Below, piece by piece: positions 6,292 to 29,697 of a DNA stretch of 32,000 nucleotides. The first letter of the stretch is position 1, and each line of letters opens with the position of its first letter. Below the pieces are notes generated by a model, which was not told where the DNA came from, searched no databases, and worked only from the letters and a program-made list of their open reading frames with translations. A program made the position numbers and the translations under genes. Source of the DNA: Caedibacter taeniospiralis (GTDB taxonomy: Bacteria; Pseudomonadota; Gammaproteobacteria; Francisellales; Francisellaceae); NCBI RefSeq assembly GCF_002803295.2, contig NZ_PGGB02000010.1, positions 1 through 32,000 on the forward strand, in the 5' to 3' direction.

Positions 6292-6344
6292 AGCGTATAT
6301 TGATACGCCCCTACAATCCTTGGATATATGTGATACGCCCCTAC
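6292..6344. repeat. two GTAG-headed REP-like units (family 1) in the sufB-sufC spacer
   Basis: TGATACGCCCCTAC is repeated perfectly at 6301-6314 and 6331-6344, which reads GTAGGGGCGTATCA on the coding (minus) strand. GCGTAT-ATTG-ATACGC forms a hairpin at 6292-6307. Related units occur at 15759-15781 and 29661-29683. Confidence 0.6.
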
Positions 6345-7783
6345 CCTATTGCACCCTCTAAACTGACTTCCATCAGTTTTTGTGCTTCAACCGCAAATTC
6401 CAAAGGTAGCTTTTTAAATACCTCTTTGCAAAAACCATTGACGATCATTGCCACCGCATCTTCTGCTGACATACCACGCTGGAGACAGTAAAACAACTGC
6501 TCATCGGAAATCTTGGACGTAGTTGCCTCATGCTCAATTTGTGCACTTTTCGATTTATTTTCAATATAAGGGTAGGTATGAGCGCCACAGTTGTGTCCAA
6601 TAAGTAATGAATCACATTGCGAGAAATTGCGTGCATTTTCCGCCGTTGGCAACATTCGCACCAGCCCGCGATAAGCATTTTGTGCATGCCCAGCTGAGAT
6701 GCCTTTTGAGATAATCGTGCTTCTGGTATTTTTACCCATATGGATCATCTTGGTTCCTGTGTCAGCTTGTTGCCTATGGCGCGTTAGTGCCACCGAGTAA
6801 AACTCACCAACACTGTTATCCCCTCGCAATATGACCGATGGATATTTCCAGGTAATGGCTGAACCTGTTTCCACTTGCGTCCATGAAATTTTAGCGTGAC
6901 TGCCTAAGCACGCCCCGCGCTTGGTGACAAAGTTGTAGATTCCCCCTTTGCCCTCTTTATCCCCTGGATACCAATTCTGCACGGTGGAATATTTAATTTC
7001 GGCATCCTTGAGTGCGATAAGTTCAACAACAGCTGCATGCAGCTGATTTTCATCGCGCATGGGAGCCGTGCAACCCTCTAAGTAGCTCACATAGCTGCCC
7101 TCATCGGCAATAATCAGTGTGCGCTCAAACTGCCCTGTATTTGAAGCATTAATCCGAAAATAAGTCGATAACTCCATGGGACAGCGTACCCCTTTGGGAA
7201 TATAGACAAAAGAGCCATCGCTAAACACGGCTGAATTTAGTGCCGCAAAATAATTATCAGTTTGTGGCACAACCGTGCCTAAATATTGTTGCACCAATTC
7301 TGGATATTTTTGTAATGCTTCCGAAATAGGACAGAAAATCACGCCCGCTTCAGCCAACTTCTCTTTGAATGTAGTCACCACGGATACGGAATCAAACACC
7401 GCATCCACCGCAATACCTGCCAGCATTTCCTGCTCATGCAAGGGAATACCCAACTTGTTATAGGTCTCAATCAACTCAGGATCCACCTCATTAAGGCTTT
7501 TAGGTCTGTCTACGTTAGATTTTGGCGCTGCATAGTAACTAAGGTTTTGGTAATTAATTGGTGCATACTTGACATGTGCCCAGGTTGGCTCCTTCATCTC
7601 CAGCCATTTATGATAGGCTTTTAAACGCCAGCCTAGCATAAACTCAGGTTCATTTTTACGCTTAGAAATTTGACGGATAATCTCCTCATCCAGTCCCACA
7701 CGAAACAACTCTTGTTCAATGTTGGTCACAAACCCATGCTTATACTCCTGCTCAAGAATCTTATTTATTTTGTCATCAGCCAT
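6341..7783 (-). CDS. sufB: Fe-S cluster assembly scaffold SufB
   Basis: 480-aa ORF with strongly SufB-like sequence throughout ([37 protein letters not shown]). It sits upstream of sufC. Confidence 0.95.
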
Positions 7784-8314: not shown

Positions 8315-8845
8315 CTAAATTTTTCCCACAGAATTTAGCGCTTGATATATTGTGCTAAATGGTAATATCAAAGAGTTAGGCTTATCTAATAACCTTATCG
8401 CACCAAAAGTTTCGTACCATTTTGCTGCTTTTTCATCTTTTGCATCAATTAGCATTGCCACCCCACCTGCCTGTGAAGCAACAAAAATACAACGCTTTCC
8501 AGCAGATAGCAGTAGTTGCCCTCCTAAACCAACTCCCTGATAATTAACATCAACCGCCAGTCTTGCTAAACGAAACACGGGAATTTCGTGTCTAGCCAAG
8601 CCTTGTGTTAATTTTTGCGGTGCTGCATTGTAAGCAATAGACGCGGGACTTAACGTATAATATCCCATTACTTTACCATCATAATCATTAATGGCTACAT
8701 ACGTTTTAGCCACCCCCTTATCATGATTTTGTCTTGCATATTTCACAAAAAAACCATTCAACTCACCATTACCACAATTAAATGATTGCCAATCATGAGT
8801 TGTTGCAATGGCTTCTTCATGCCATGCCATAGGCTTTATACTCAT
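8315..8845 (-). CDS. GNAT-family acetyltransferase toxin (TacT-like)
   Basis: 176-aa ORF with GNAT motif A (RLAVDVNYQGVGLGGQLL). Its start overlaps the stop of an upstream DUF1778-type gene by 4 nt (ATGA). Confidence 0.8.
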   Translation of the reverse strand: MSIKPMAWHEEAIATTHDWQSFNCGNGELNGFFVKYARQNHDKGVAKTYVAINDYDGKVMGYYTLSPASIAYNAAPQKLTQGLARHEIPVFRLARLAVDVNYQGVGLGGQLLLSAGKRCIFVASQAGGVAMLIDAKDEKAAKWYETFGAIRLLDKPNSLILPFSTIYQALNSVGKI

Positions 8846-9126
8846 TTTATTGTATATTTAGGGAGATCAAATGCTGCTTTCAACATTTTTGCATTGGGTT
8901 TCTGAGGATCGTCCAGCAGTTTCATGACTTCTATACTATCCCTTTTACTTAATTCAATTCTCTCATTCTCCTCAATCACCCTATGAGCTGCTGATATGGA
9001 ATTTTTTAAAACAAATTCCGTCAAATTGACATGAAGCAAACTTGCCGCCTTCATTAACAAACCCTTTTCCTCGATGTTAATACGTAACGACATTCTCTCA
9101 TTGTGTTTAACTACAGCTTGTGGCAT
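8842..9126 (-). CDS. DUF1778 ribbon-helix-helix antitoxin (TacA-like)
   Basis: The sequence RMSLRINIEEKGLLMKAASLLHVNLTEFVLKNSISAAHRVIEE...LDDPQKPNAKMLKAAF matches the DUF1778 pattern. The start at 9126 has AAGGAGAGGG just upstream; the start at 9153 in the track is less likely. Confidence 0.8.
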   Translation of the reverse strand: MPQAVVKHNERMSLRINIEEKGLLMKAASLLHVNLTEFVLKNSISAAHRVIEENERIELSKRDSIEVMKLLDDPQKPNAKMLKAAFDLPKYTIK

Positions 9127-9164
9127 AGCCCTCTCCTTTTTGTGCACATTCAAGTTGTACGTGC

Positions 9165-9192
9165 ATTATAAGCAATTTCAACTTAAAAGCAA
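9165..9192 (-). promoter_or_regulatory. putative sigma-70 promoter of the toxin-antitoxin operon
   Basis: The minus strand reads TTGCTT, a 16-nt spacer, then TATAAT. It is followed by an inverted repeat TGCAC-N13-GTGCA (about 9142-9164) just before the antitoxin ribosome-binding site. This is sequence pattern only. Confidence 0.35.
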
Positions 9193-9242
9193 ACCACCAT
9201 CTAACTTTAAGGAGCTAGAATGAATAAATTCAACCAAGACCT

Positions 9243-9268
9243 CATTCCCATGCTCCTGCGTGGGAATG
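9243..9268. repeat. REP-like hairpin, family 2
   Basis: CATTCCCATGC-TCCT-GCGTGGGAATG. Its core is the reverse complement of the 331-350 unit with one substitution. Confidence 0.55.
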
Positions 9269-9618
9269 CGTAATTTTATACCCTAAGGTAAATTTTAAAA
9301 ATCTCGTCCCTTTAGGATCAAACTATAAAAATGCTTTGCAATTACTTTTTTCCACTGTACTCTGTTTGCTTAGAGATAAATTTTCGGCAAAAGTACCTAA
9401 TTAGATGCGTTTTTACAATCGTTCATTTGTGTTAAAAAGCAGCTTAAACGCTTGTGGAGCCTGTTGTTTATTTCCTTTATCCTGTTGCTGTCGATGTAGC
9501 AAGCCTAATTAAGGTTTTCTCATTGAGCGTTTGTTTTCAAACACAAAATAATCACCTTTAAATTAGGCTTTTCTCCACAGTTTTATTATTTTTGTAAATC
9601 AAACAACAGGATAACAAT

Positions 9619-13173: not shown

Positions 13174-13316
13174 TAAAATCTCACTTTTACATTTATCTCA
13201 ATATTTGCTTATTTTATCACACCATGATCAAATACTCGGCGGTAACTATATTTCCGCCCATCACCCAGTGTGAGTTGTCAGTGTGACACTGATTACTCAC
13301 TGCTTCCCCATAAACT

Positions 13317-13346
13317 AATGGCACTACCTTAAGCACTAACTACCCC
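13317..13346. repeat. solo or truncated end of the MITE family (matches the left terminal repeat of copy B)
   Basis: AATGGCACTACCTTAAGCA at 13317-13335 is identical to 25401-25419. It is followed by CTAACTACCCC (compare GAAACTACCCC in copy B). No matching right end is visible. Confidence 0.5.
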
Positions 13347-15659: not shown

Positions 15660-15758
15660 TTATTAATCCTAACACTTTGATTTGGTGAGTTTATTTTTTC
15701 ATACACTTAACTACTACTGCAAATTAGGTCTTACCAGAATTTCCACCCATTTTTGCAA

Positions 15759-15803
15759 GGGCGTATACAATACGCCCCTCCGCACCATCTGTCGTGGGCG
15801 GAG
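15759..15803. repeat. REP-like hairpins (family 1 unit plus an adjacent hairpin)
   Basis: GGGCGTAT-ACA-ATACGCCC at 15759-15777, the same stem as at 29665-29683. It is followed by a CTCCGC...GCGGAG inverted repeat at 15778-15803. Confidence 0.5.
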
Positions 15804-16112: not shown

Positions 16113-16406
16113 ATATCTCACCTCGCTTAAATGCCATTAAAACATCAACAACTCTATTTGTAAGGTCTAAATAAACAGGCTTACCTGCCACTTTAGTCCT
16201 AAAAATCAAACGCGCCAAGTCTACAAACTTTCCCTCCAAAAAGCAAATGCGTTTTGCTGAAATTTGCTCCAAAAATAATAGGCTTGGCAGGATTCCCACT
16301 CATAAATCTGTTGCAGCTTTTGATTAGGTAGCACATAATGCTGACGGCAATGACCATGTCATGGTCTTTGACTCTCTTGTGTTAATTGGCGAAGTGGCTA
16401 AATATT

Positions 16407-16853
16407 ATGATCCAAAGCGAAACTAAAAATCAGCTCATCATCGCAGATGAGCATGCGATGCTTGAACTTGGTAAAAAAATCAGCAAATCTCTCAAAAAAG
16501 GCGGTGTTATCTATCTTTATGGAGATCTAGGCGCTGGCAAAACTACACTTACCAAAGGTATTTTACAAGGTTTTGGGTTTACAGGGAGTGTCAAAAGCCC
16601 TACTTACACACTGATTGAAACTTATCCGATTAATGGCACCATCTTGCAGCACTTTGATTTGTATCGGTTAAGTGATCCAGAGGAGCTTGAATGGATTGGC
16701 ATTCGTGACTACTTCAACGGCGACAGCATTTCGCTGATTGAGTGGCCACAAAAGGGTGGCGACTTTCTGCCCCCCCCCACCAGGGAAATTCACATTGCGT
16801 ACACAGGTACAGGTCGTTCTGTCACCATACTACCTCTTGGGCTGACATTTTAA
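16407..16853 (+). CDS. tsaE: tRNA t6A37 biosynthesis ATPase TsaE
   Basis: GDLGAGKTTLTKG P-loop, SPTYTLIETY and HFDLYRL motifs. The start is uncertain between ATG 16407 and TTG 16386. It contains a C9 tract at 16770-16778. Confidence 0.9.
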   Translation: MIQSETKNQLIIADEHAMLELGKKISKSLKKGGVIYLYGDLGAGKTTLTKGILQGFGFTGSVKSPTYTLIETYPINGTILQHFDLYRLSDPEELEWIGIRDYFNGDSISLIEWPQKGGDFLPPPTREIHIAYTGTGRSVTILPLGLTF

Positions 16854-16869
16854 AAACCAGATCATCGAT

Positions 16870-19800
16870 TTACAAGAGGTGAATATAGGGGATCAATGGG
16901 AAATACAAGGATACCTTGATGTGTGTCTTGTTTATTTGAAGATGTGTTGCCAGTAAGGTTTGATAGGTCTTTAGCTGTTCGCTGTAGTGAGTCTCTTGCA
17001 CTTTAAGAAAATCTTCTAATGTCTCTCCGAAGGCAGGTGATGTAAATTTGTAGTCCACAATATGGTACTGGTTATTGTCAACAATGATTCTATCGGCAAT
17101 ATTTTTCTTCAGTTTGCCAAAGTTTAAACTTAGCATCATTTGTTCACTCATGCCCGTGGCAGAAAATATCCAGGGATAATGCTGTTGTGTGTATTCAACA
17201 GCGAGCCTGGCGTCGTTTAGAGCTTTAATTTTAAGCGTACCTGAAAGCGCATATTCATGGGCACAGAGTGAGAAATATGCTTGCCAGTCACCGATGTGAT
17301 CAGGATTACGGCATAGATAGTTAAATAATTGGTGAAGCACTGATCCCATCTGGCGATCTTCACTTACTATCAACTCATTCATATCAGGATGATTAAGCTC
17401 ATCTTGCAACATCATGGAAGGGAAGATGTCTGTCAAGGAAATGGAGTAGTGACTCACTTGTTTGATGGGTTTATAGCAGGCGAGTCTTTCTACCTTATCT
17501 TGTAATAATTGCTGAGATTGAGTTTCATGTGGCGCAGTCTTCCAGGGAAAGTTTAAAGGTTGAAGTAATGCAAGTAGACTATTGTTTTTAGCAGTGAGCT
17601 GATCGCTGTTATTTTCAGTAATCGCGGTAAGAAGAAGCTTTGATTTTGCGCGTGTGACCGCTACGTAGAGAAGGCGCTGCTGTTCATAGGCAGCACGCTT
17701 CTTTTGCATATTTTGAATGACTTGATAAAGGGCGGGGGCTGATTTATCCCAGCTGTGTTTGATAGGACTCAATAACAAATGTATCTTGTGATCATTTAAG
17801 CGCACGCTTTCGTGTAGAAATAATGGGTTTTCATCGCCTTTGCTGCCCTTATCCAGCTGCGGGAGAATCACAAAATCAAACTCAAGCCCCTTGGCCTTAT
17901 GAATGGTCATAATAGAAACCTGGGCTTGTGAGGGGATACTGATATATTTTCGTTTCAAGGTATCAATTAAACGATCCATATTGGCAATCGAAGTCTTATC
18001 AGGAGTTAAATGCCCATCTAGCAAAGCCAAAAAGCTGGTGTACAGGCTTTTTTGCGCGCCATGAATATTCATTCCATCCAGCCTTTGCCATAAGATGCTT
18101 AAGCGGTCAATTAATGATCCACGCAAACTGGTAAACGGCATATTCATTAGCCACTGTAAAAAATGATGGGCTTTTTGTTGGTGAGCATGAGTCTGATGAT
18201 GACAAAGATAAGTCAGGAGTTGCTGGCAAAATGAAATATCCTCCCGCCCGCACATGGATATTTTTTTAACCGAAGTTTCGCACTTTTGCAAATTTACACG
18301 TTTAAGAAACACCCCGTCAGCCTGCGGCTGCCACCCCTCTACAAGAGGGGAATCTTTTGATGGCTTTCTATCAAATTCCCCTTCATTTGTGAAGGGGTGG
18401 ACGCAAAGCGGACGGGGTAGTTCAGCAAGCAGTGCATAATCCGAGCTTTTTATGCGATTCAATTCATTTAAACTAAATCCAAATAAGGATGATTGTAATA
18501 AGCTTATCCAGTAAATCTCTTGTTCAGGATTAGTTAAAATCGCCGCAAGAGAGACAAGATCCATAACCATTGGCTGGTGATAAAAAGGCTCAATCTCGTT
18601 TTCAACGAGTCTGATTTGATGCGCTTTTAGAATGGGGATCATCGTTTTAAGCTGTGTTCGTGTACGCACCAAGATAGCGATATGATGCTTGGAGTGCTCT
18701 TGCAGATAATGTTTAATCTTATGAGCGATATAATGCGCCTCGTCTTGAGCGTCACTAAAGAGTGAAAAACTTACTGCTTCTTGATTATCAGTTTCAGACA
18801 GTGTGCTTGCGTAAGCATAACTAATACCTCCATAGTTCATATCATCTTCAGCAGGAAAAATCTGACTGAAGCTTTTATTCACCCAATCAACGATGCTTTT
18901 TTGCGAACGAAAATTACAATGAAGTTGCAAAAATTTGGGTTTAATTTGGTTAATACCTTGAGATTTAACTTCTAAAAACTGATTCACTTCCGCTTGACGA
19001 AAGCGGTAAATAGATTGCATAGGGTCTCCGACAACAAACAGTGTTTTACCATCGTCAGACTGCCATTCCAAAGTTAGCATTTGCAGTAATTTAAATTGTA
19101 AAATTGAGGTATCCTGGAACTCATCAATGAGTAAATGCCTGATCTGATGATCCAGATAAAGCATAAGCTCTGTTGGACTGTCTTCATTACCTAATGCCGA
19201 CAAAGCCTGGAGTGATACTTCATTAAAATCAAGCAAGCCCTGCTGTTTGAAAACAAGCTTAAGATATTGCACTAAACGCAAGCTGATTTGAGTGATCGCC
19301 TTGAGTATTTGCCACTCGTTATCATCAAAGATAAGCTTTTCATAGAGTACAAGCTCAGAAATAACCGCATAAATCCTGAGCTTGTCTTTATCGCTAAACT
19401 GTTCAATGTAGGTAAGGAGCCATTTTTTATGTGCCTCGGCAGTTGGGTCTTTGGCGGGCAGTCCCTGTCTGGCATTAAAAGTCTTTCGAAACTGAAGCTC
19501 ACTTGTAAACAGTAGCTGAATGAGTCGTTGCCAAAAATAAGGATGATTGCGGTTATCCTCAAACGATTGAATTAAATTTTCATCAGTGGACTGATTAGAG
19601 TCTTGATGATCACAAAATGCAATAATCTGCCCAAGCCTTTCACTATAAGTCTTTTGGTCCAAACAAAGCAGATGCGTGGCTTTCTGGCATAATGCTCTAA
19701 AAAGCGCCAAAAAGCCTGATTCAATCGTTGACCTGGTATTAGTATCCTTTTGGTAAAGGAGTTCGGATTGCAATAAAACCGGTAGCCACTGTTCACGAGT

Positions 19801-20412
19801 TGACAGTAGATTGGTAAATAGTTGTTTGACATTACTGATATTGTTATCAAGATGAAGCAACAGTTGATAAAAATCCTGATAATAAGGACTCGTATCCGTT
19901 GTGTCAGCAATGAGTTGATCAATGGCTTTTTCATACAAAAGCTCTGGCGAGTCAGTCACTTCGGCGCTAAATGCTTCACCCGTTTCAAAAACAAGCTGTT
20001 TTGATAAGAGCTGACAAAAGGCGTCGATGGTTGTGATGCGTAATCTCTTGGGGTTATTGAGAATTTGCCAATGTTTCATCTGACTTTGTTTGAGTGCTGC
20101 TTGTGCAAGCTCAAAGGTCAGTTTTTTATGTGACTCATCGGAGGCGCGCGTGCTTTTTGCATCCATAAGCGCCTCATAAATTCGATGGTGCATTTCATTG
20201 GCCGCTTTATTGGTAAAGGTTAGCGCGATAATTTCTTCAGGTGCATCGGCATGTGCCAACAGGTTTAAGTAACGCTGTGTCAGAGTTTCTGTTTTGCCAG
20301 AACCAGCGGGTGCTTGAACGATAAAAGATCGACGGGGGTCTAACGCTTGCTTACGCGCGTGAGCATCATCAGGGATCATGGATAAGGCTGCATTTATTAC
20401 ACTAGCCAACAT
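16870..20412 (-). CDS. AddA/UvrD-type SF1 helicase fused to a RecB-family PD-(D/E)XK nuclease, carrying an in-frame repeat insertion
   Basis: Helicase motifs: I APAGSGKT, Ia TFTNKAANEM, II LLIDEFQDTS, III VVGDPMQSIYRFRQAE, IV NFRS, V MTIHKAKGLEFD, VI YVAVTRAKSKL. C-terminal nuclease motifs are GSVLHQLF, IADRIIVDNNQYHIVDYKFT and QLKTYQ. An alternative start is Met12 at 20379. Confidence 0.85.
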   Translation of the reverse strand: MLASVINAALSMIPDDAHARKQALDPRRSFIVQAPAGSGKTETLTQRYLNLLAHADAPEEIIALTFTNKAANEMHHRIYEALMDAKSTRASDESHKKLTFELAQAALKQSQMKHWQILNNPKRLRITTIDAFCQLLSKQLVFETGEAFSAEVTDSPELLYEKAIDQLIADTTDTSPYYQDFYQLLLHLDNNISNVKQLFTNLLSTREQWLPVLLQSELLYQKDTNTRSTIESGFLALFRALCQKATHLLCLDQKTYSERLGQIIAFCDHQDSNQSTDENLIQSFEDNRNHPYFWQRLIQLLFTSELQFRKTFNARQGLPAKDPTAEAHKKWLLTYIEQFSDKDKLRIYAVISELVLYEKLIFDDNEWQILKAITQISLRLVQYLKLVFKQQGLLDFNEVSLQALSALGNEDSPTELMLYLDHQIRHLLIDEFQDTSILQFKLLQMLTLEWQSDDGKTLFVVGDPMQSIYRFRQAEVNQFLEVKSQGINQIKPKFLQLHCNFRSQKSIVDWVNKSFSQIFPAEDDMNYGGISYAYASTLSETDNQEAVSFSLFSDAQDEAHYIAHKIKHYLQEHSKHHIAILVRTRTQLKTMIPILKAHQIRLVENEIEPFYHQPMVMDLVSLAAILTNPEQEIYWISLLQSSLFGFSLNELNRIKSSDYALLAELPRPLCVHPFTNEGEFDRKPSKDSPLVEGWQPQADGVFLKRVNLQKCETSVKKISMCGREDISFCQQLLTYLCHHQTHAHQQKAHHFLQWLMNMPFTSLRGSLIDRLSILWQRLDGMNIHGAQKSLYTSFLALLDGHLTPDKTSIANMDRLIDTLKRKYISIPSQAQVSIMTIHKAKGLEFDFVILPQLDKGSKGDENPLFLHESVRLNDHKIHLLLSPIKHSWDKSAPALYQVIQNMQKKRAAYEQQRLLYVAVTRAKSKLLLTAITENNSDQLTAKNNSLLALLQPLNFPWKTAPHETQSQQLLQDKVERLACYKPIKQVSHYSISLTDIFPSMMLQDELNHPDMNELIVSEDRQMGSVLHQLFNYLCRNPDHIGDWQAYFSLCAHEYALSGTLKIKALNDARLAVEYTQQHYPWIFSATGMSEQMMLSLNFGKLKKNIADRIIVDNNQYHIVDYKFTSPAFGETLEDFLKVQETHYSEQLKTYQTLLATHLQINKTHIKVSLYFPLIPYIHLL
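18271..18445. mobile_element. MITE-like palindromic element, copy A, inside the helicase ORF
   Basis: The core at 18305-18422 is collinear with 25429-25544, including a 28-nt perfect match (18311-18338 = 25436-25463). The outer stem is ACCCCGTC/GACGGGGT. Internal hairpins lie at 18334-18350 and 18378-18397. The left flank 18272-18290 matches the left terminal repeat of copy C at 16 of 19 positions by hand alignment. The right flank is weaker, so the outer boundaries are approximate. Confidence 0.7.
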
Positions 20413-21956: not shown

Positions 21957-21975
21957 GAGTTATTATCCATTATTA

Positions 21976-22081
21976 CTGGAGTTACGCACTTTTGCTGCAC
22001 TACCCCCACCTCGCTTGCCTGACCACTACTGGAGTGGTCAGGCGGGGTAGTTAAAAAATCAGTAAAAGTACGTAACTTCAG
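21976..22081. mobile_element. MITE-like palindromic element, copy C (short form)
   Basis: Terminal inverted repeats are CTGGAGTTACGCACTTTTGCTG (21976-21997) and TCAGTAAAAGTACGTAACTTCAG (22059-22081). The inner CTACCCC...GGGGTAG stem encloses a perfect 10-bp hairpin, CCTGACCACT-ACTGG-AGTGGTCAGG. Confidence 0.65.
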
Positions 22082-22095
22082 ATTGTTAGAAAAAG

Positions 22096-25361: not shown

Positions 25362-25398
25362 TAACCAAAGTTATGGACTTTTGCGAATTGAATAAACA

Positions 25399-25568
25399 CC
25401 AATGGCACTACCTTAAGCAGTCTTAATGAGAAACTACCCCGTCAGCCTGCGGCTGCCACCCCTTCGCTAACGAAGGGGAATTACACATATGCCACAATTC
25501 CCCTTCACTCGTGAAGGGGTGCCGAGCTTGCGAGGCGGGGTAGTGACTGCTTAAGGTAGCGCCATTGG
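25399..25568. mobile_element. MITE-like palindromic element, copy B, with terminal inverted repeats and a target-site duplication
   Basis: The terminal repeats are CCAATGGCACTACCTTAAGCAGTC (left) and GACTGCTTAAGGTAGCGCCATTGG (right), matching at 23 of 24 positions. They are flanked by direct AATAAACA(C) at 25391-25399 and 25569-25577. The inner CTACCCCG/CGGGGTAG stem encloses hairpins at 25459-25478 and 25500-25519. Confidence 0.8.
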
Positions 25569-25590
25569 AATAAACACAGGGTAATAACAA

Positions 25591-27969
25591 ATGAAATTTA
25601 GTCATCGTTGGTTGGAAAGTTATCTGGATCAAACACTTGATATTGATGTATTAAGCGAAAAATTAACAGCAGCAGGTTTAGAGGTTGATTCAATTGAGGC
25701 AGTGGCGCCTGAATTTAACGGGGTTGTCGTCGGTGAAATCAAGAAAATTGATAAACATCCTGATGCGGATAAATTGAATATATGTCAAGTGGATGTCGGT
25801 GACGACGAGTTATTGACGATCGTCTGTGGTGCACCCAATGTGTACTCTGGAATGAAAGCACCTGTTGCCAAAATTGGTGCCTCTTTACCTTATGACTTTA
25901 AAATTAAAAAAAGCACCCTTCGAGCTCAGGAATCCTATGGCATGATGTGCTCACAAAAGGAGTTAGGACTTAGCGAAGAAAATGAGGGGCTGATGGATTT
26001 GCCTCAGGATGCTCGAGTTGGTGAGGATATTCGCGACTATCTTCAGCTGGATGATCATGTGATTGAAGTAGATTTAACGCCAAATCGCGCGGATTGTTCA
26101 AGTGTATATGGTATCGCCAGAGAAGTTTCAGCATTGACCGAAGCCAAACTTTTGCCATTGACAGAAATTAAGCTAACAGCAACTAAAAAAGCGGATAAAC
26201 AAGTTATCAGTGAAACACCTGAAAACTGCCCACGATACTTTGGACAAACGATTTATAACATCAATGCCAAAGTGCAAACCCCGCTGTGGATGAAAGAACG
26301 TTTACGTCGTTCAGGGCTGAGATCCATTTCAGCGATCGTTGATATTACTAATTATGTATTGCTTGAATTAGGACAACCTATGCACGCCTTTGATGCAGAT
26401 AAAGTGGGCAGCAGTATTTATGCGCGTATGGCAAAAGACAACGAAAAAATCACCCTGCTTGATGAAACCGAAATAACGCTTAAACCAGGTACGCTGGTGA
26501 TTGCTGATGCGCATCATGCTCTGGCAATTGCTGGAGTTATAGGGGGGCTTAATTCGGCTGTTACTACTGAAACCCGCAATATTTTTTTGGAAAGTGCCTA
26601 TTTTGCGCCAGTTGCCATTGCAGGCAAAGCTCGTCAATACGGTTTACATACGGATTCGTCACACAGATTTGAACGTGGTGTTGATCCCAAACTCTGTCAA
26701 TATGCGATTGATTATGCAGCAGCATTAGTCGTTGAAATTGCAGGTGGTGAGCTTGGTGAGATTGTTTGTGCTGATCATTATGATGAAATTGCGCTTGAGA
26801 TACCGCTTCGTTTAAGTAAGTTAAATTCTATTTTAGGCATGAACTTTTCAGCAGACTTTGTAGAAGCAGTGCTTACTGCACTTAAGATGAGCCTTACTCG
26901 AGTGACTGCCAATGGCGATGTGATCTGGCAGGTGAGCGCCCCCAGTTATCGCTTTGATATGATAATCGAAGAAGATTTGATTGAAGAGGTGGGGCGCATC
27001 TATGGCTATCAAAATTTACCCATGAATCTACCTCAAATGTCATTGATGCCACAGCATGTCTCTGAGCAGACGATCGCATTAGCGACACTTAAAAGCACGC
27101 TGGTAAATCGTGGCTACCATGAAGTGATCAACTATAGTTTTATCGATCCTAAGCTTGATGAGCTGTTTTTTGGCATGGCTGGACTTTCTTTGCAAAACCC
27201 GATTTCGCAGGATATGTCTATTATGCGTCAAGGTTTAATTCCGAGTTTAGTCAGCACATTTAAAACCAATTTAAATCGCCAGCAGTCACGTATTCGTATT
27301 TTTGAGGAGGGGGTGTGTTTTCAACCTGCTGAAAAATTGGCGCATGAGTATTCCCATTTTGCAGGTCTTGCCTATGGCAGTATTAACCCTCTTAACTGGC
27401 AGGAGAAGTCGATCAGTGACTTTTATTCGGTGAAGGCGGATGTTGAAGCCTTATTGCAATTGAATAAACATGCCATTCATTATATCCCGTGTGAAGACAT
27501 TGACTGGCTGCATCCAGGACAATCTGCCTACATATATCAAAGTGGAGAGAAGGTGGGCGTAATCGGCGCGCTGCATCCTAATGTCATGAGCGTGTTGCAG
27601 ATTAAAGGAAAAGCGCCGATTGTGTTTGAATTGCAGACGAGTAAAATCTCTAACAAACATATCGCGAAATTTATGGCAATTTCTAAATATCCATCGGTTT
27701 CCAGAGACATTGCTGTGACTGTTGATCGCCATACCACCGCGCAAAGCTTGGTTGATGCTGTCAACAAAGCCGATGTGCAGCAATTGAATCAAGTCGATCT
27801 TTTTGATGTTTATCAAGGTGATAATTTACCTGAAAATAAAAAGAGTATTGCGTTGAATTTGACTTTCCAGGACAACACAAAAACCTTGACGGATGAAGTG
27901 ATGAGTGAAGTCATGGCAAAGATTCTCACTTCGCTGAAAACCCATGCCAATGCGAGCTTGCGTGAGTAA
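25591..27969 (+). CDS. pheT: phenylalanine--tRNA ligase beta subunit
   Basis: 792-aa ORF with an N-terminal tRNA-binding domain (MKFSHRWL...HPDADKLNICQVDVG), B3/4 and B5 domains, and a C-terminal FDX-ACB domain (YPSVSRDIAV). Confidence 0.95.
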   Translation: MKFSHRWLESYLDQTLDIDVLSEKLTAAGLEVDSIEAVAPEFNGVVVGEIKKIDKHPDADKLNICQVDVGDDELLTIVCGAPNVYSGMKAPVAKIGASLPYDFKIKKSTLRAQESYGMMCSQKELGLSEENEGLMDLPQDARVGEDIRDYLQLDDHVIEVDLTPNRADCSSVYGIAREVSALTEAKLLPLTEIKLTATKKADKQVISETPENCPRYFGQTIYNINAKVQTPLWMKERLRRSGLRSISAIVDITNYVLLELGQPMHAFDADKVGSSIYARMAKDNEKITLLDETEITLKPGTLVIADAHHALAIAGVIGGLNSAVTTETRNIFLESAYFAPVAIAGKARQYGLHTDSSHRFERGVDPKLCQYAIDYAAALVVEIAGGELGEIVCADHYDEIALEIPLRLSKLNSILGMNFSADFVEAVLTALKMSLTRVTANGDVIWQVSAPSYRFDMIIEEDLIEEVGRIYGYQNLPMNLPQMSLMPQHVSEQTIALATLKSTLVNRGYHEVINYSFIDPKLDELFFGMAGLSLQNPISQDMSIMRQGLIPSLVSTFKTNLNRQQSRIRIFEEGVCFQPAEKLAHEYSHFAGLAYGSINPLNWQEKSISDFYSVKADVEALLQLNKHAIHYIPCEDIDWLHPGQSAYIYQSGEKVGVIGALHPNVMSVLQIKGKAPIVFELQTSKISNKHIAKFMAISKYPSVSRDIAVTVDRHTTAQSLVDAVNKADVQQLNQVDLFDVYQGDNLPENKKSIALNLTFQDNTKTLTDEVMSEVMAKILTSLKTHANASLRE

Positions 27970-27974
27970 ATAAG

Positions 27975-28394
27975 ATGCTGGATGTACAATTTATAGAAAA
28001 ATGCAATGCAACTTTGATCGAAGCCTATCGCCTGTTAGGGGAAAGCGAGTCAGAAGGCGTTCACTATGATCTGTATCTCTCGGCAATTATCAAAGAGTTT
28101 GAAATACTGCTTGAACAGTGCGGAAAGTTATTGAAGAAAGCCCTGGTTCCTTACTTTCACTCAAAAAAGGCTGTGGATCAGTTGACTTTTAAAGATATTT
28201 TTAGATACACAGGTAACTATGGGCTATTAAGTACAGATGAAATTGAACGCTGGTTAAACTATCGAGATAACCGAAATCTCACGGCGCATGATTACGGCTT
28301 TGATTTAGCAGAGGAAACTTTGCCACTTATCCCCATGTTTATCGAAGATGTGAAACGTTTAATTAAAATGCTTAGGGCACAAAATGCTTCTTAG
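27975..28394 (+). CDS. HEPN-domain protein, HI0074 / nucleotidyltransferase substrate-binding family (putative toxin)
   Basis: 139-aa ORF with an Rx4HxY HEPN motif (RNLTAHDY) and an overall PF08780-like pattern (IKEFEILLEQCGKLLKKAL...W...RD.RNLTAH). It starts 5 nt after the pheT stop. Confidence 0.8.
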   Translation: MLDVQFIEKCNATLIEAYRLLGESESEGVHYDLYLSAIIKEFEILLEQCGKLLKKALVPYFHSKKAVDQLTFKDIFRYTGNYGLLSTDEIERWLNYRDNRNLTAHDYGFDLAEETLPLIPMFIEDVKRLIKMLRAQNAS

Positions 28395-28695
28395 GGATAA
28401 AGATAGAGAGTTACTGATAGCGCTTGCAGTGAAAACGCTCAAAACGCCTTGTGAGATTTGGGTCTATGGCAGTCGCGTTGACGGCTCAGCACACGATGGC
28501 AGTGATTTGGATCTTGTAATTAGGACGAAAAATCTCGCTCCCTTGAACGCGCTAATGTTGCAGGCATTTAAAGACGCAATACAAACTTCAAATATTCCCA
28601 TCCTGGTGCAAGTTCTGGATTGGGCACGAATTCCTCAAAGTTTTCATAGCAACATCTTAAAAAACTACGCTGTTTTAAAGCCACTTAATAGTTAG
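28384..28695 (+). CDS. minimal nucleotidyltransferase (MNT, HI0073-like; putative antitoxin)
   Basis: 103-aa ORF with the pol-beta NTase signature GSRVDGSAHDGSDLDL. It overlaps the HEPN gene by 11 nt. Confidence 0.8.
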   Translation: MLLRDKDRELLIALAVKTLKTPCEIWVYGSRVDGSAHDGSDLDLVIRTKNLAPLNALMLQAFKDAIQTSNIPILVQVLDWARIPQSFHSNILKNYAVLKPLNS

Positions 28696-28891: not shown

Positions 28892-29539
28892 TTAAACCTT
28901 TCTGGAGCTTTTGTCACTTAATTGCATCTCAAGTGCGTTTGCCCACAGGTAACTAAAAACACCGATGTAAACACCACCCAAAACATCACCAAGATAATGC
29001 TCTGTACTTAATATTCGGCTAATGGTAATGACAAGCGCAAGAGCGATACACAGGATGGTTATTTTCTTATTCTGTATAAGCTCGGTAAGTCCCAGTAATC
29101 CAGCAAAAGCCAGTGTAGCATGCCCTGAAGGAAAACTGTTAAATAAGCGCTTGTGTGAAAACCAGTGAAAACCATAGAGTCCTTCTTGCAGAAAGAGCTC
29201 AGGACGATAGCGTGCCAGGGTGACTTTAATAACCGTTGCCACCCCAAGAGCAAGAAATAAACTCAGCGCCCAGATAGCTAAGCGGGGGTTTAGCTTCTGG
29301 CGCCACTTTTGCCAGATACACACAATCGATAGAATAACAAATAGCACAAGCCAGTGATCAGGATCAAAAACAGTGGAGATAAAATTTGCGAGTTTAACGA
29401 CAGCTGTATACTGAAGCTCATGATAAGCCGTAATCGCCAGAGGGCGGTCCAGGTAAACATAACATAAAGTTAAAACTGCCAGGGTGATAATTCCGTAAGA
29501 AAGTGTTTGTTTAAGAAGCGTTCTGATATTCGTCATCAT
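28892..29539 (-). CDS. PAP2-family membrane phosphatase
   Basis: All three PAP2 motifs are present: KVTLARYRP, PSGH and SRILSTEHYLGD. I prefer the start at 29539 (MMTNIRTLLKQTL, followed by a transmembrane helix). The extension to 29677 in the track runs through a REP cluster. Confidence 0.8.
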   Translation of the reverse strand: MMTNIRTLLKQTLSYGIITLAVLTLCYVYLDRPLAITAYHELQYTAVVKLANFISTVFDPDHWLVLFVILSIVCIWQKWRQKLNPRLAIWALSLFLALGVATVIKVTLARYRPELFLQEGLYGFHWFSHKRLFNSFPSGHATLAFAGLLGLTELIQNKKITILCIALALVITISRILSTEHYLGDVLGGVYIGVFSYLWANALEMQLSDKSSRKV

Positions 29540-29640
29540 TGCATTGTTATCTAAGAAGTAGGTGTAAAAAGCGTAACTTTTTTTACGAGTTGAGAAAAGA
29601 GAAATTACACTAAATCGGGTTTTGTCGCACACTATATCTT

Positions 29641-29697
29641 CGCCCATGATGGCGTATTGCGTAGGGGCGTATTGCATACGCCCTTCTAAAATGGGCG
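29641..29697. repeat. GTAG-headed REP-like cluster (family 1)
   Basis: GTAG, then GGGCGTAT-TGC-ATACGCCC at 29661-29683. It is preceded by a direct copy of GGCGTATTGC (29651-29660) and bracketed by CGCCCAT / ATGGGCG (29641-29647 and 29691-29697). Confidence 0.6.

Follow-up and report, generated by a model that had tools for sequence, protein, structure and literature searches.

The Rickettsia palindromic elements (RPEs) have as their hallmark insertion in frame within genes (Ogata et al. 2000, 2002, as summarised in PMC10969869 and PMC3733652). A second family, QMITE2 of Coxiella burnetii, has members of 150-190 bp that are flanked by direct repeats of 7-11 bp and bounded by terminal repeats of 23-29 bp. 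Its core of 113-145 bp carries a repetitive extragenic palindrome (REP) of the GTAG type, and both full-size and small, REP-only versions are known (PMC5896051; PMC10969869). More generally, GTAG- and CGTC-tagged REPs have been described in more than 80 species, and intragenic REPs have been reported in genes for UvrD/Rep helicases, recBCD, uvrA/B, tRNA synthetases and truB (Di Nocera et al. 2013; PMC3733652). Here we compare with these systems a palindromic segment that lies within a helicase-nuclease gene in a 32-kb stretch of DNA (hereafter the window) from Caedibacter taeniospiralis, and whose core recurs in the spacer between the pheS and pheT genes of the same stretch.

C. taeniospiralis, a member of the Fastidiosibacteraceae, is an obligate endosymbiont of Paramecium, and the Caedibacter genome paper makes no mention of such repeats (PMC7297999). 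We consider it very probable that a non-autonomous transposable element, namely a 176-bp miniature inverted-repeat transposable element (MITE) enclosing a REP-like dimer, inserted into the helicase-nuclease coding sequence of one C. taeniospiralis lineage after its split from another lineage that bears this species name in the databases, and that the insert is read through and tolerated. The other lineage is represented here by a syntenic locus, denoted L001.

The insertion in the helicase-nuclease gene

The gene encodes a protein with the Pfam domains UvrD-helicase, UvrD_C and PDDEXK_1 (PD-(D/E)XK), which is the AddA-type layout of a superfamily 1A helicase core with a C-terminal PD-(D/E)XK nuclease fold. 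A Foldseek search with an AlphaFold model of the protein placed AddA at the top (4ceh_A, E = 7e-37; 3u44_A is also AddA) and RecB next. The NCBIfam equivalog cut-offs were missed both for AddA (TIGR02784, 231.8 versus 860.75 bits; TIGR02785, 206 versus 707) and for RecB (201 versus 696), and the protein is RecB/AddA-like by fold. RefSeq lists it as an intact protein of C. taeniospiralis (WP_158107016.1), identical except for the called start. This match, together with a best named ortholog that is also from C. taeniospiralis, rules out a Coxiella origin for the DNA, which its QMITE-like appearance might have suggested. The features of the gene and of the segment within it, in window coordinates, are as follows.

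16870-20412, minus strand: RecB/AddA-like superfamily 1 (SF1) helicase-nuclease gene, 1180 codons, zero stops or frameshifts
18271-18453, minus strand: inserted segment, 183 bp, codons 654-714 (IKSSDYALLAELPRPLCVHPFTNEGEFDRKPSKDSPLVEGWQPQADGVFLKRVNLQKCETS), gene positions 1960-2142
18264-18270, no strand: target-site copy TTTTAAC, present as a single copy in the empty site of L001
18271-18289, plus strand: left terminal inverted repeat (TIR) of the type we call TIR-A (CGAAGTTTCGCACTTTTGC), 15 of 16 positions matching the left end of a related element at 21976
18309-18354, minus strand: beta unit, ATTCCCCTC-loop-GAGGGGTG-hairpin-CGGGGTGT
18374-18421, plus strand: alpha unit, AATTCCCCTTC-N6-GAAGGGGTG-hairpin-CGGGGTAGT
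18422-18446, minus strand: right terminal inverted repeat, a degenerate TIR-A recognised via the element at 21976
18447-18453, no strand: second target-site copy TTTTTAT, decayed, 5 of 7 positions matching TTTTAAC
Insert junctions: spanned by the peptides ...SLNELNRIKSSDYALLAELPR and VNLQKCETSVKK

Relative to L001, the gene contains a sole indel, of 183 bp, and the other 3327 bp are 91.3% identical. The BLAST blocks that flank the insert on either side overlap the same 7 bp of L001, whose empty site reads GGTTTTTTTAAC/GCGATC. The 183 bp comprise the 176-bp element (18271-18446) and one copy of the target duplication. At the protein level, an alignment of 12 sequences shows the insert as a single clean block of 61 residues, from IKSSDYALLAELPRPL to LQKCETS, that is missing in all 11 orthologs inspected, and these already vary in length immediately after the insertion point. 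The ortholog from the L001 lineage (P0002) is 1108 aa long and is 84% identical to the window protein by BLASTP (89% in the alignment).

The insert shares with the pheS-pheT spacer an exact 28-nt repeat (18311-18338 = 25436-25463), of which approximately 1e-8 would be expected by chance in 32 kb, and a second collinear block (18374-18399 versus 25496-25521) that is 92% identical. The hairpin pattern CCCCTTC-N6-GAAGGGG occurs three times versus 0.03 expected, and a spurious open reading frame (ORF) in the spacer, at 25423-25632 on the minus strand, holds HPFTSEGEL...GWQPQADGVV. A word-index protein search with the 61-aa insert peptide gave zero matches. An exhaustive HMMER search against 1.84 billion representatives gave four, one of which is a chance match while the other three are spurious ORFs that read tandem arrays of a related unit (SPPVEGWQAQPDGVV).

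Two trivial origins were considered for the segment. The same insert, with an intact frame and three substitutions within it, is present at the corresponding locus (L003) of an independent assembly, GCA_031972495.1, and an assembly artefact is therefore ruled out. An intein or intron is ruled out as well, given that the segment has no intein termini, matches no ribozyme or intron model and is a TIR-bounded repeat. Mini-inteins are larger than 61 aa, so the insert is also too short to be an intein.

Much of this had been anticipated by the original prediction, which was made from the DNA alone. It had pointed out the perfect 28-nt identity, the collinear similarity beside it and the signature HPFT.EGE...GWQPQADGV in the spurious ORF, all of which were recovered, and it had proposed that an alignment of orthologs would show one clean gap at this point, as it does. 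Its view that the segment is repeat-derived, and not native, is borne out by that gap, by the terminal repeats and target duplication, and by the covariance-model matches described below (E = 8e-22 and 1e-11). Its estimate of about 58 added residues at 18271-18445 was correct as to the insertion and its peptide and fell short in extent, the true size being 183 bp, or 61 aa, at 18271-18453.

Anatomy of the helicase copy

The helicase copy has several of the attributes by which MITEs are recognised. It is only 176 bp long, its six frames encode solely repeat-derived peptide and no transposase gene, it carries terminal inverted repeats, and its target-site duplication corresponds to an empty site in a relative. 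The left end is identical at 24 of 28 positions to a half-site on the pheS side of the pheS-pheT spacer (25362-25389), and the right end, when 18415-18442 is read as its reverse complement, agrees with the left end of the 21976 element at 25 of 29 positions with two gaps; none of 2000 shuffles scored as high as these terminal repeats. The window as a whole holds three sites that bear TIR-A, two that bear a second type of terminal repeat (TIR-B, see below), and no transposase genes.

The interior is an inverted dimer of two-hairpin units of approximately 50 nt, which face each other with their GTAG-type ends (GGGGTAG) outward. Both units were recognised by a covariance model, R1, that was built solely from other, unrelated genomes: the alpha unit scores 69 bits (E = 8e-22) and the beta unit 40.6 bits (E = 1.3e-11). 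The whole segment is predicted to fold as a long hairpin, either as DNA (-40.9 kcal/mol, z = -5.6) or as sense RNA (-75.8 kcal/mol, z = -5.7). No terminator-like or promoter-like sites were predicted within the insert on the sense strand of the gene.

The related element through which the terminal repeats of the helicase copy were recognised is located elsewhere in the window.

21976-22081, no strand: short TIR-A MITE, 106 bp, between rsmB and the inositol-monophosphatase gene, missing in L001

Its own terminal repeats match each other at 19 of 22 positions, and it is flanked by a 7-bp target duplication, ATTATTA (21969-21975) and ATTGTTA (22082-22088), conserved at six of seven positions. At the empty site, L001 carries the heptamer only once, as ATTGTTA, and the flanking alignment blocks overlap these 7 bp of L001. 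The core of this element is minimal, consisting of ACTACCCC...hairpin...GGGGTAGT without the first hairpin. It shares both the TIR family and the duplication length of the helicase insertion and provides an independent check on the latter.

The pheS-pheT copy and a second MITE shell

The second copy of the core occupies the spacer between pheS and pheT and has the following parts.

25390-25577, no strand: pheS-pheT spacer copy, a 168-bp element with 10-bp direct repeats
25390-25399 and 25568-25577: direct repeats GAATAAACAC, perfect over 10 bp
25400-25422 and 25545-25567: TIR-B (CAATGGCACTACCTTAAGCAGTC), an inverted repeat of 24 nt at 96%
25433-25482, minus strand, and 25496-25544, plus strand: two alpha units (R1, E = 7e-24 and 9e-17)
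25362-25389, plus strand: solo TIR-A-like half-site abutting the element, 24 of 28 positions matching the left end of the helicase copy

The DNA of this copy is predicted to fold with -57 kcal/mol (z = -10), and its 122-bp core has GGGGTAGT ends. The expectation that the core of the helicase element also occurs in this spacer holds for the inner part, which is common to both, but not for the terminal repeats, which are TIR-A in one copy and TIR-B in the other. Given the shared core and these different ends, this genome has two distinct MITE shells for one REP-type dimer. No Rfam family exceeded its gathering threshold across the window, and the only Rfam matches on the pheS-pheT copy were chance microRNA-like ones with E above 1. 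A BLASTN search of the element against plasmids gave zero matches.

A TIR-B 19-mer is present in at least 119 metagenome contigs, where TIR-B bounds short elements, namely MITEs 150-200 bp in length whose cargo varies, and long ones of approximately 1.5 kb that encode a DDE_Tnp_1 (PF01609) transposase. Duplications of 9-11 bp flank elements of either kind. On the basis of Pfam domain, element size and duplication length only, the TIR-B family would be classed as IS4-like. Among the contigs bearing such termini (AATGGCACTACCTTAAGCA; L118-L236), examples of MITEs are found in L126, L139 and L204, and of insertion sequences (ISs) of approximately 1.5 kb in L206, L223 and L227. Many TIR-B copies adjoin GGGGTCAGACCCC-like sequence, which suggests that this is a preferred target. 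In L001, the corresponding pheS-pheT spacer (L001:3546-4328) has approximately 765 bp of unrelated sequence in place of the 188-bp MITE of the window, and this sequence contains a 244-aa ORF without a Pfam match.

Reading frame, selection and predicted structure

Five of the six frames of the insert contain stops; the helicase uses the sixth, which is open. The 466 codons 3' of the insert are likewise free of stops, and all catalytic motifs are kept. Those that are invariant across 53 homologs include Walker A (residues 34-41), DEFQD (430-434), motif III (461-472), NFRS (500-503), TIHKAKGLEF (836-845) and VAVTRAK (917-923), together with the nuclease residues D1107, D1120, K1122 and Y1150. The ratio of nonsynonymous to synonymous substitution rates (dN/dS) relative to L001, by the Nei-Gojobori method, is 0.21 overall, 0.19 upstream and 0.23 downstream of the insert. 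Taken together, these data argue against an old pseudogene, but taken alone they are no proof that the gene has kept its function since the insertion.

The gene sequences of the two insert-bearing strains are distinguished by nine sites (0.25%), a divergence similar to that of rsmB (0.23%), ychF (0.3%) and pheT (0.63%). Six of these sites lie outside the insert, four being nonsynonymous and two synonymous. The other three fall within the insert, which makes up 5% of the gene length (binomial p = 0.009), and this suggests weaker constraint there.

The insert site lies between motif IV (NFRS) and motif V (TIHKAKGLEF), just past the end of the alignment to Bacillus subtilis AddA (3u44_A). The last aligned residue, 655 (...FGFSLNELNRIK), marks the beginning of domain 2B. 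An AlphaFold model based on the 53-sequence alignment has a mean predicted local distance difference test (pLDDT) score of 83.5. In this model, residues 660-723, located between confident helices at 648-656 and 728-738, fall below a pLDDT of 50 and lack secondary structure. The prediction for the insert is thus a disordered loop where domain 2B begins. Three further elements of the original prediction agree with what we find: an ORF that reads straight through (the frame of the second assembly is intact too), an insertion bracketed by motifs IV and V in a 2B-type region, and a place where an extra loop may be tolerated, which the modelled disorder fits.

Comparison with described systems

The likeness to RPEs and QMITEs that had been proposed for this locus holds for behaviour and architecture, as judged from published descriptions. 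The helicase copy resembles the RPEs in being palindromic, in the size range of roughly 100-150 bp, in its intracellular host and in lying in frame within a housekeeping gene that is read through, and the added peptide of RPEs is likewise thought to sit where the fold tolerates an insertion. Unlike the RPEs, however, it resides in a gammaproteobacterium of the Fastidiosibacteraceae rather than in Rickettsia, its terminal inverted repeats can be recognised and a target duplication is present, and it is the one intragenic copy in 32 kb.

QMITE2 is the closest match architecturally, above all for the pheS-pheT copy, by its published description. The elements of the window are similar to QMITE2 in size (176 bp in the helicase gene, 168 bp in the pheS-pheT spacer), in the length of their direct repeats (7 and 10 bp, respectively) and in their terminal repeats (23-24 bp for the pheS-pheT copy and approximately 20 bp for the helicase copy). 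They also share with QMITE2 a structured core with a GTAG REP, the existence of full-size and REP-only versions, and occasional in-frame intragenic copies. The differences are that the host is Caedibacter and not Coxiella, that QMITE2 is reported in genes of known function only at their 3' ends whereas the insertion described here is mid-gene, and that no IS110/IS1111 transposase is present in the window, QMITE2 being an insertion target of IS1111.

The inner unit is a stem-loop with an unpaired terminal GTAG, as is characteristic of GTAG-tagged REPs. Other similarities are that units of these families end in GTAG, that dimers with outward GTAG ('HH') predominate among them (PMC3733652), and that the same gene classes carry in-frame units in other genomes examined here. 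In contrast to the single stem-loop of 20-40 bp, however, the unit has approximately 50 nt, two hairpins and long invariant blocks, its GTAG lies 3' of the hairpins, and its dimer is found inside TIR-bounded MITEs. These comparisons with the 24 published GTAG families were made on their descriptions. A relationship to IS4-like elements is indicated for the pheS-pheT copy, whose TIR-B is the terminus of the DDE_Tnp_1 ISs and MITEs described above, but not for the helicase copy, which has TIR-A and for which no autonomous partner was found. Finally, UvrD/RecB-type repair genes had been found to harbour REP or MITE insertions before (PMC3733652).

Weighing the explanations

Our favoured explanation is the insertion of a MITE that is still read through. 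A transposase supplied in trans would have cut and pasted the element into the A/T-rich heptamer TTTTAAC. Given that 183 bp is a multiple of three, that the insert has a sole stop-free frame and that the start of domain 2B is an indel-prone loop, the ribosome would read straight through the insert, adding 61 residues that are predicted to form a disordered loop. The insert is then best seen as a tolerated passenger. Several observations nonetheless weigh against this explanation. The target duplication at the helicase locus is decayed (5/7), the two ends of the helicase copy resemble each other weakly and each is recognisable only via the 21976 element, and an autonomous TIR-A element was not found. 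No AddB-like partner gene is adjacent, the neighbours being rsmB, a 56-aa ORF and tsaE. The dN/dS values integrate both lineages since their split and so do not isolate the period after the insertion, and the differences between the strains are too few to show recent constraint. The insert-bearing protein is therefore only presumed to work still.

We regard it as improbable that the insertion inactivated the gene and that its intact frame is that of a young pseudogene in an endosymbiont shedding repair functions. In favour of this reading, the host is an obligate Paramecium endosymbiont (PMC7297999), an adjacent AddB partner gene is missing, the strain differences outside the insert (four nonsynonymous to two synonymous) are uninformative, and the mRNA over the insert is predicted to fold strongly. 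However, the 466 stop-free downstream codons with every catalytic motif retained, the downstream dN/dS of 0.23, a strain divergence no higher than that of rsmB, ychF and pheT, and an insert that occupies the only open frame of six all speak against it. It is similarly unlikely that the REP dimer was itself the mobile entity, moved as a REPIN-like single-stranded DNA hairpin by an enzyme of the HUH or REP-associated tyrosine transposase (RAYT) type rather than as a TIR-bounded MITE by a DDE enzyme. Such mobility would account for the alpha units that occur alone, without TIRs, in many phyla and singly in the frames of ArgRS, TruB and PriA genes (see below), for the identical dimer type within two different TIR shells of the window, and for the hairpin features that fit selection on DNA. 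Against it, TIR-A ends and a 7-bp duplication mark the boundaries of the helicase insertion, precisely what is seen for the element at 21976-22081, and neither a RAYT nor any other recurrent neighbour protein was found in 113 loci. RAYT-bound REPs, moreover, carry GTAG 5' of the hairpin, whereas here it is 3' of the hairpins.

Two further readings concern the status of the insert rather than its arrival. Domain 2B is regulatory in the UvrD, Rep and PcrA helicases, and the insert could in principle have been co-opted, either as a new surface loop with an effect on helicase regulation or on the binding of partners, or as a regulatory mRNA or DNA structure. Its retention in two strains is compatible with this idea, as is the report by Di Nocera et al. 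that genes for replication and repair are enriched in intragenic REPs (PMC3733652). Even so, we judge co-option to be very unlikely because the insert changes more quickly than the remaining gene sequence (three of nine strain differences in 5% of the gene length, binomial p = 0.009), is predicted to be disordered, and is missing in the sister lineage and in every ortholog inspected. The converse notion, that the segment is native helicase sequence from which the pheS-pheT copy was derived, has only the shared sequence in its favour. It is refuted by the absence of the segment from all orthologs inspected, and the terminal repeats, the target duplication and the occurrence of the unit in dozens of unrelated genomes also contradict it, leaving it with almost no probability.

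The inner two-hairpin unit across bacteria

An exact-pattern scan for AATTCCCCTTC-N6-GAAGGGGTG, conducted with one genome per species, found the pattern in at least 113 stretches. The matches listed come from Bacteroidales, Chitinophagales, Balneolaceae, Kapaibacteria/Ignavibacteria, Rickettsiales and other Alphaproteobacteria, and further from Deferribacteraceae, Endomicrobia, Arenimonas, Ghiorsea and a metagenome-assembled genome (MAG) of the Francisellaceae; among them the unit is abundant in Rickettsiales MAGs. Also among the matches listed, the 3' side of the pattern carries a variable hairpin, which is 10-37 nt long and has 87 different sequences in 113 units, and in 113 of 123 units the hairpins are followed by GGGGTAG. 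The scan specified neither the variable hairpin nor GGGGTAG.

The unit is 44-60 nt in size and consists of two hairpins and the invariant blocks AATTCCCCTTC and GAAGGGGTG. Both hairpins covary strongly, the second one freely, with 92-97% of cells paired and a covariation score of 0.33-0.36 versus 0.07 for shuffled alignments; none of 500 shuffles reached the observed score. Fewer than 1% of the paired cells are G-U, and C-GNA-G, a stable type of DNA mini-hairpin, is frequent among the loops of the variable hairpin; these two features fit selection on DNA hairpins, not RNA. The covariance model R1 identified 215 units in 735 kb of unit-bearing loci.

The unit and its inverted beta'-alpha dimer show sequence conservation over many phyla, with representatives in Bacteroidota, Rickettsiales, Deferribacterota, Elusimicrobiota, and Zeta- and Gammaproteobacteria. 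The arrangement of the helicase copy, a beta'-spacer-alpha dimer, is also seen in Kapaibacterium, Ghiorsea, Balneolaceae and others, and units in Kapaibacterium, Ignavibacteria and an uncultured lineage have a TIR-A-like sequence, CTGAAGTTACGC, at their flanks. Example loci for the unit or dimer, among those designated L004-L116, are L014:7808-7932, L034:4166-4298 and L094:872-1001, which may be set beside 18309-18421 and 25433-25544 of the window. Long head-to-tail arrays of units, with a 127-bp period, are present in a Chitinophagales MAG (L070:5-441), and gene callers turn unit arrays into spurious repeat proteins (SPPVEGWQAQPDGVV...), as in P0121, P0122 and P0124.

Units are also found within reading frames elsewhere, specifically in genes for PriA (L008:5968-6017), ArgRS (L054:3467-3514), a class II aldolase (L079:3106-3159), PheT (L094:944-993) and TruB (L097:6886-6933). 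These cases come from Rickettsiales and Balneolaceae MAGs, and the unit in the PheT gene corresponds to a gap against the PheT of the window itself.

Clustering of the ORFs in 113 loci of 8 kb revealed no transposase, RAYT or other recurrent neighbour protein but only ordinary housekeeping families, a survey that is blind to a single-copy RAYT located elsewhere in those genomes. Viral contigs gave a single match, and phages are therefore not an obvious vector. A full-text literature search for the motif strings returned only unrelated primer and guide sequences. We matched the inner unit to no described family, and a prior description may exist.

With these caveats, we put forward tentatively, as a possibility that we hold with less than even confidence, that the unit of approximately 50 nt, AATTCCCCT(T)C-loop-G(A)AGGGGTG-variable hairpin-CGGGGTAG/TGT, is an uncatalogued pan-bacterial mobile DNA-hairpin module. 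Such a module would have approximately 30 invariant bases in at least eight phylum-level lineages, would ride unrelated MITE shells (TIR-A and the IS4-like TIR-B), and would be tolerated in frame in essential genes such as those for helicases, tRNA synthetases, TruB and aldolase. If this is true, the unit would be a cross-phylum counterpart of the RPEs, and its conserved bases would be a recognition site for some enzyme.

Other repeats and differences in the window

One additional TIR-B site was noted in the window.

13314-13346, plus strand: solo TIR-B followed by ACTACCCC, in the rpoD-dnaG spacer, with no TIR-B in L001

This site is probably a truncated copy. All three TIR-bounded insertions of the window are lineage-specific relative to L001, and no R1 units are present in the 22.5-kb syntenic stretch of the latter.

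Two small palindromic repeat families of other sequence were also observed, one (TTTTGCAAGGGCGTATACAATACGCCCC...) at 15751-15784, 29658-29691 and 6327-6349, and one (TTCCCACGCAGGAGCGTGGGA) at 330-350 and 9246-9266. These further families suggest that the genome hosts several REP or MITE families. Approximately 840 bp at 8488-9327 are missing in L001; this segment contains an ORF for a TacA-like antitoxin (8842-9153), reaches into an ORF for a GNAT acetyltransferase (8315-8845), and looks like a lineage-specific toxin-antitoxin module. A HepT/MNT-type toxin-antitoxin pair is located at 27975-28695. Relative to GCA_031972495.1, tsaE (16386-16853), the HepT-like gene (27975-28394) and a PAP2 gene (28892-29677) show 4-10% differences amid neighbours with 0-0.6%, which looks like the result of local recombination or replacement.

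Implications

The locus extends the phenomenon known from RPEs and QMITEs to Caedibacter, a protist endosymbiont, in a gene that is essential-looking. It also constitutes a natural experiment: of two lineages with 91% identical DNA, one has the repair helicase with a 61-residue loop of transposon origin and the other has it without. Given that the empty site is preserved and an insert-free ortholog is extant, the insert-bearing and insert-free proteins are directly comparable, and their comparison would bear on how selfish palindromes fit domain 2B of an SF1 helicase. The wider value of the finding lies in the inner unit, by virtue of its sequence conservation across phyla and its in-frame occurrence in core genes.

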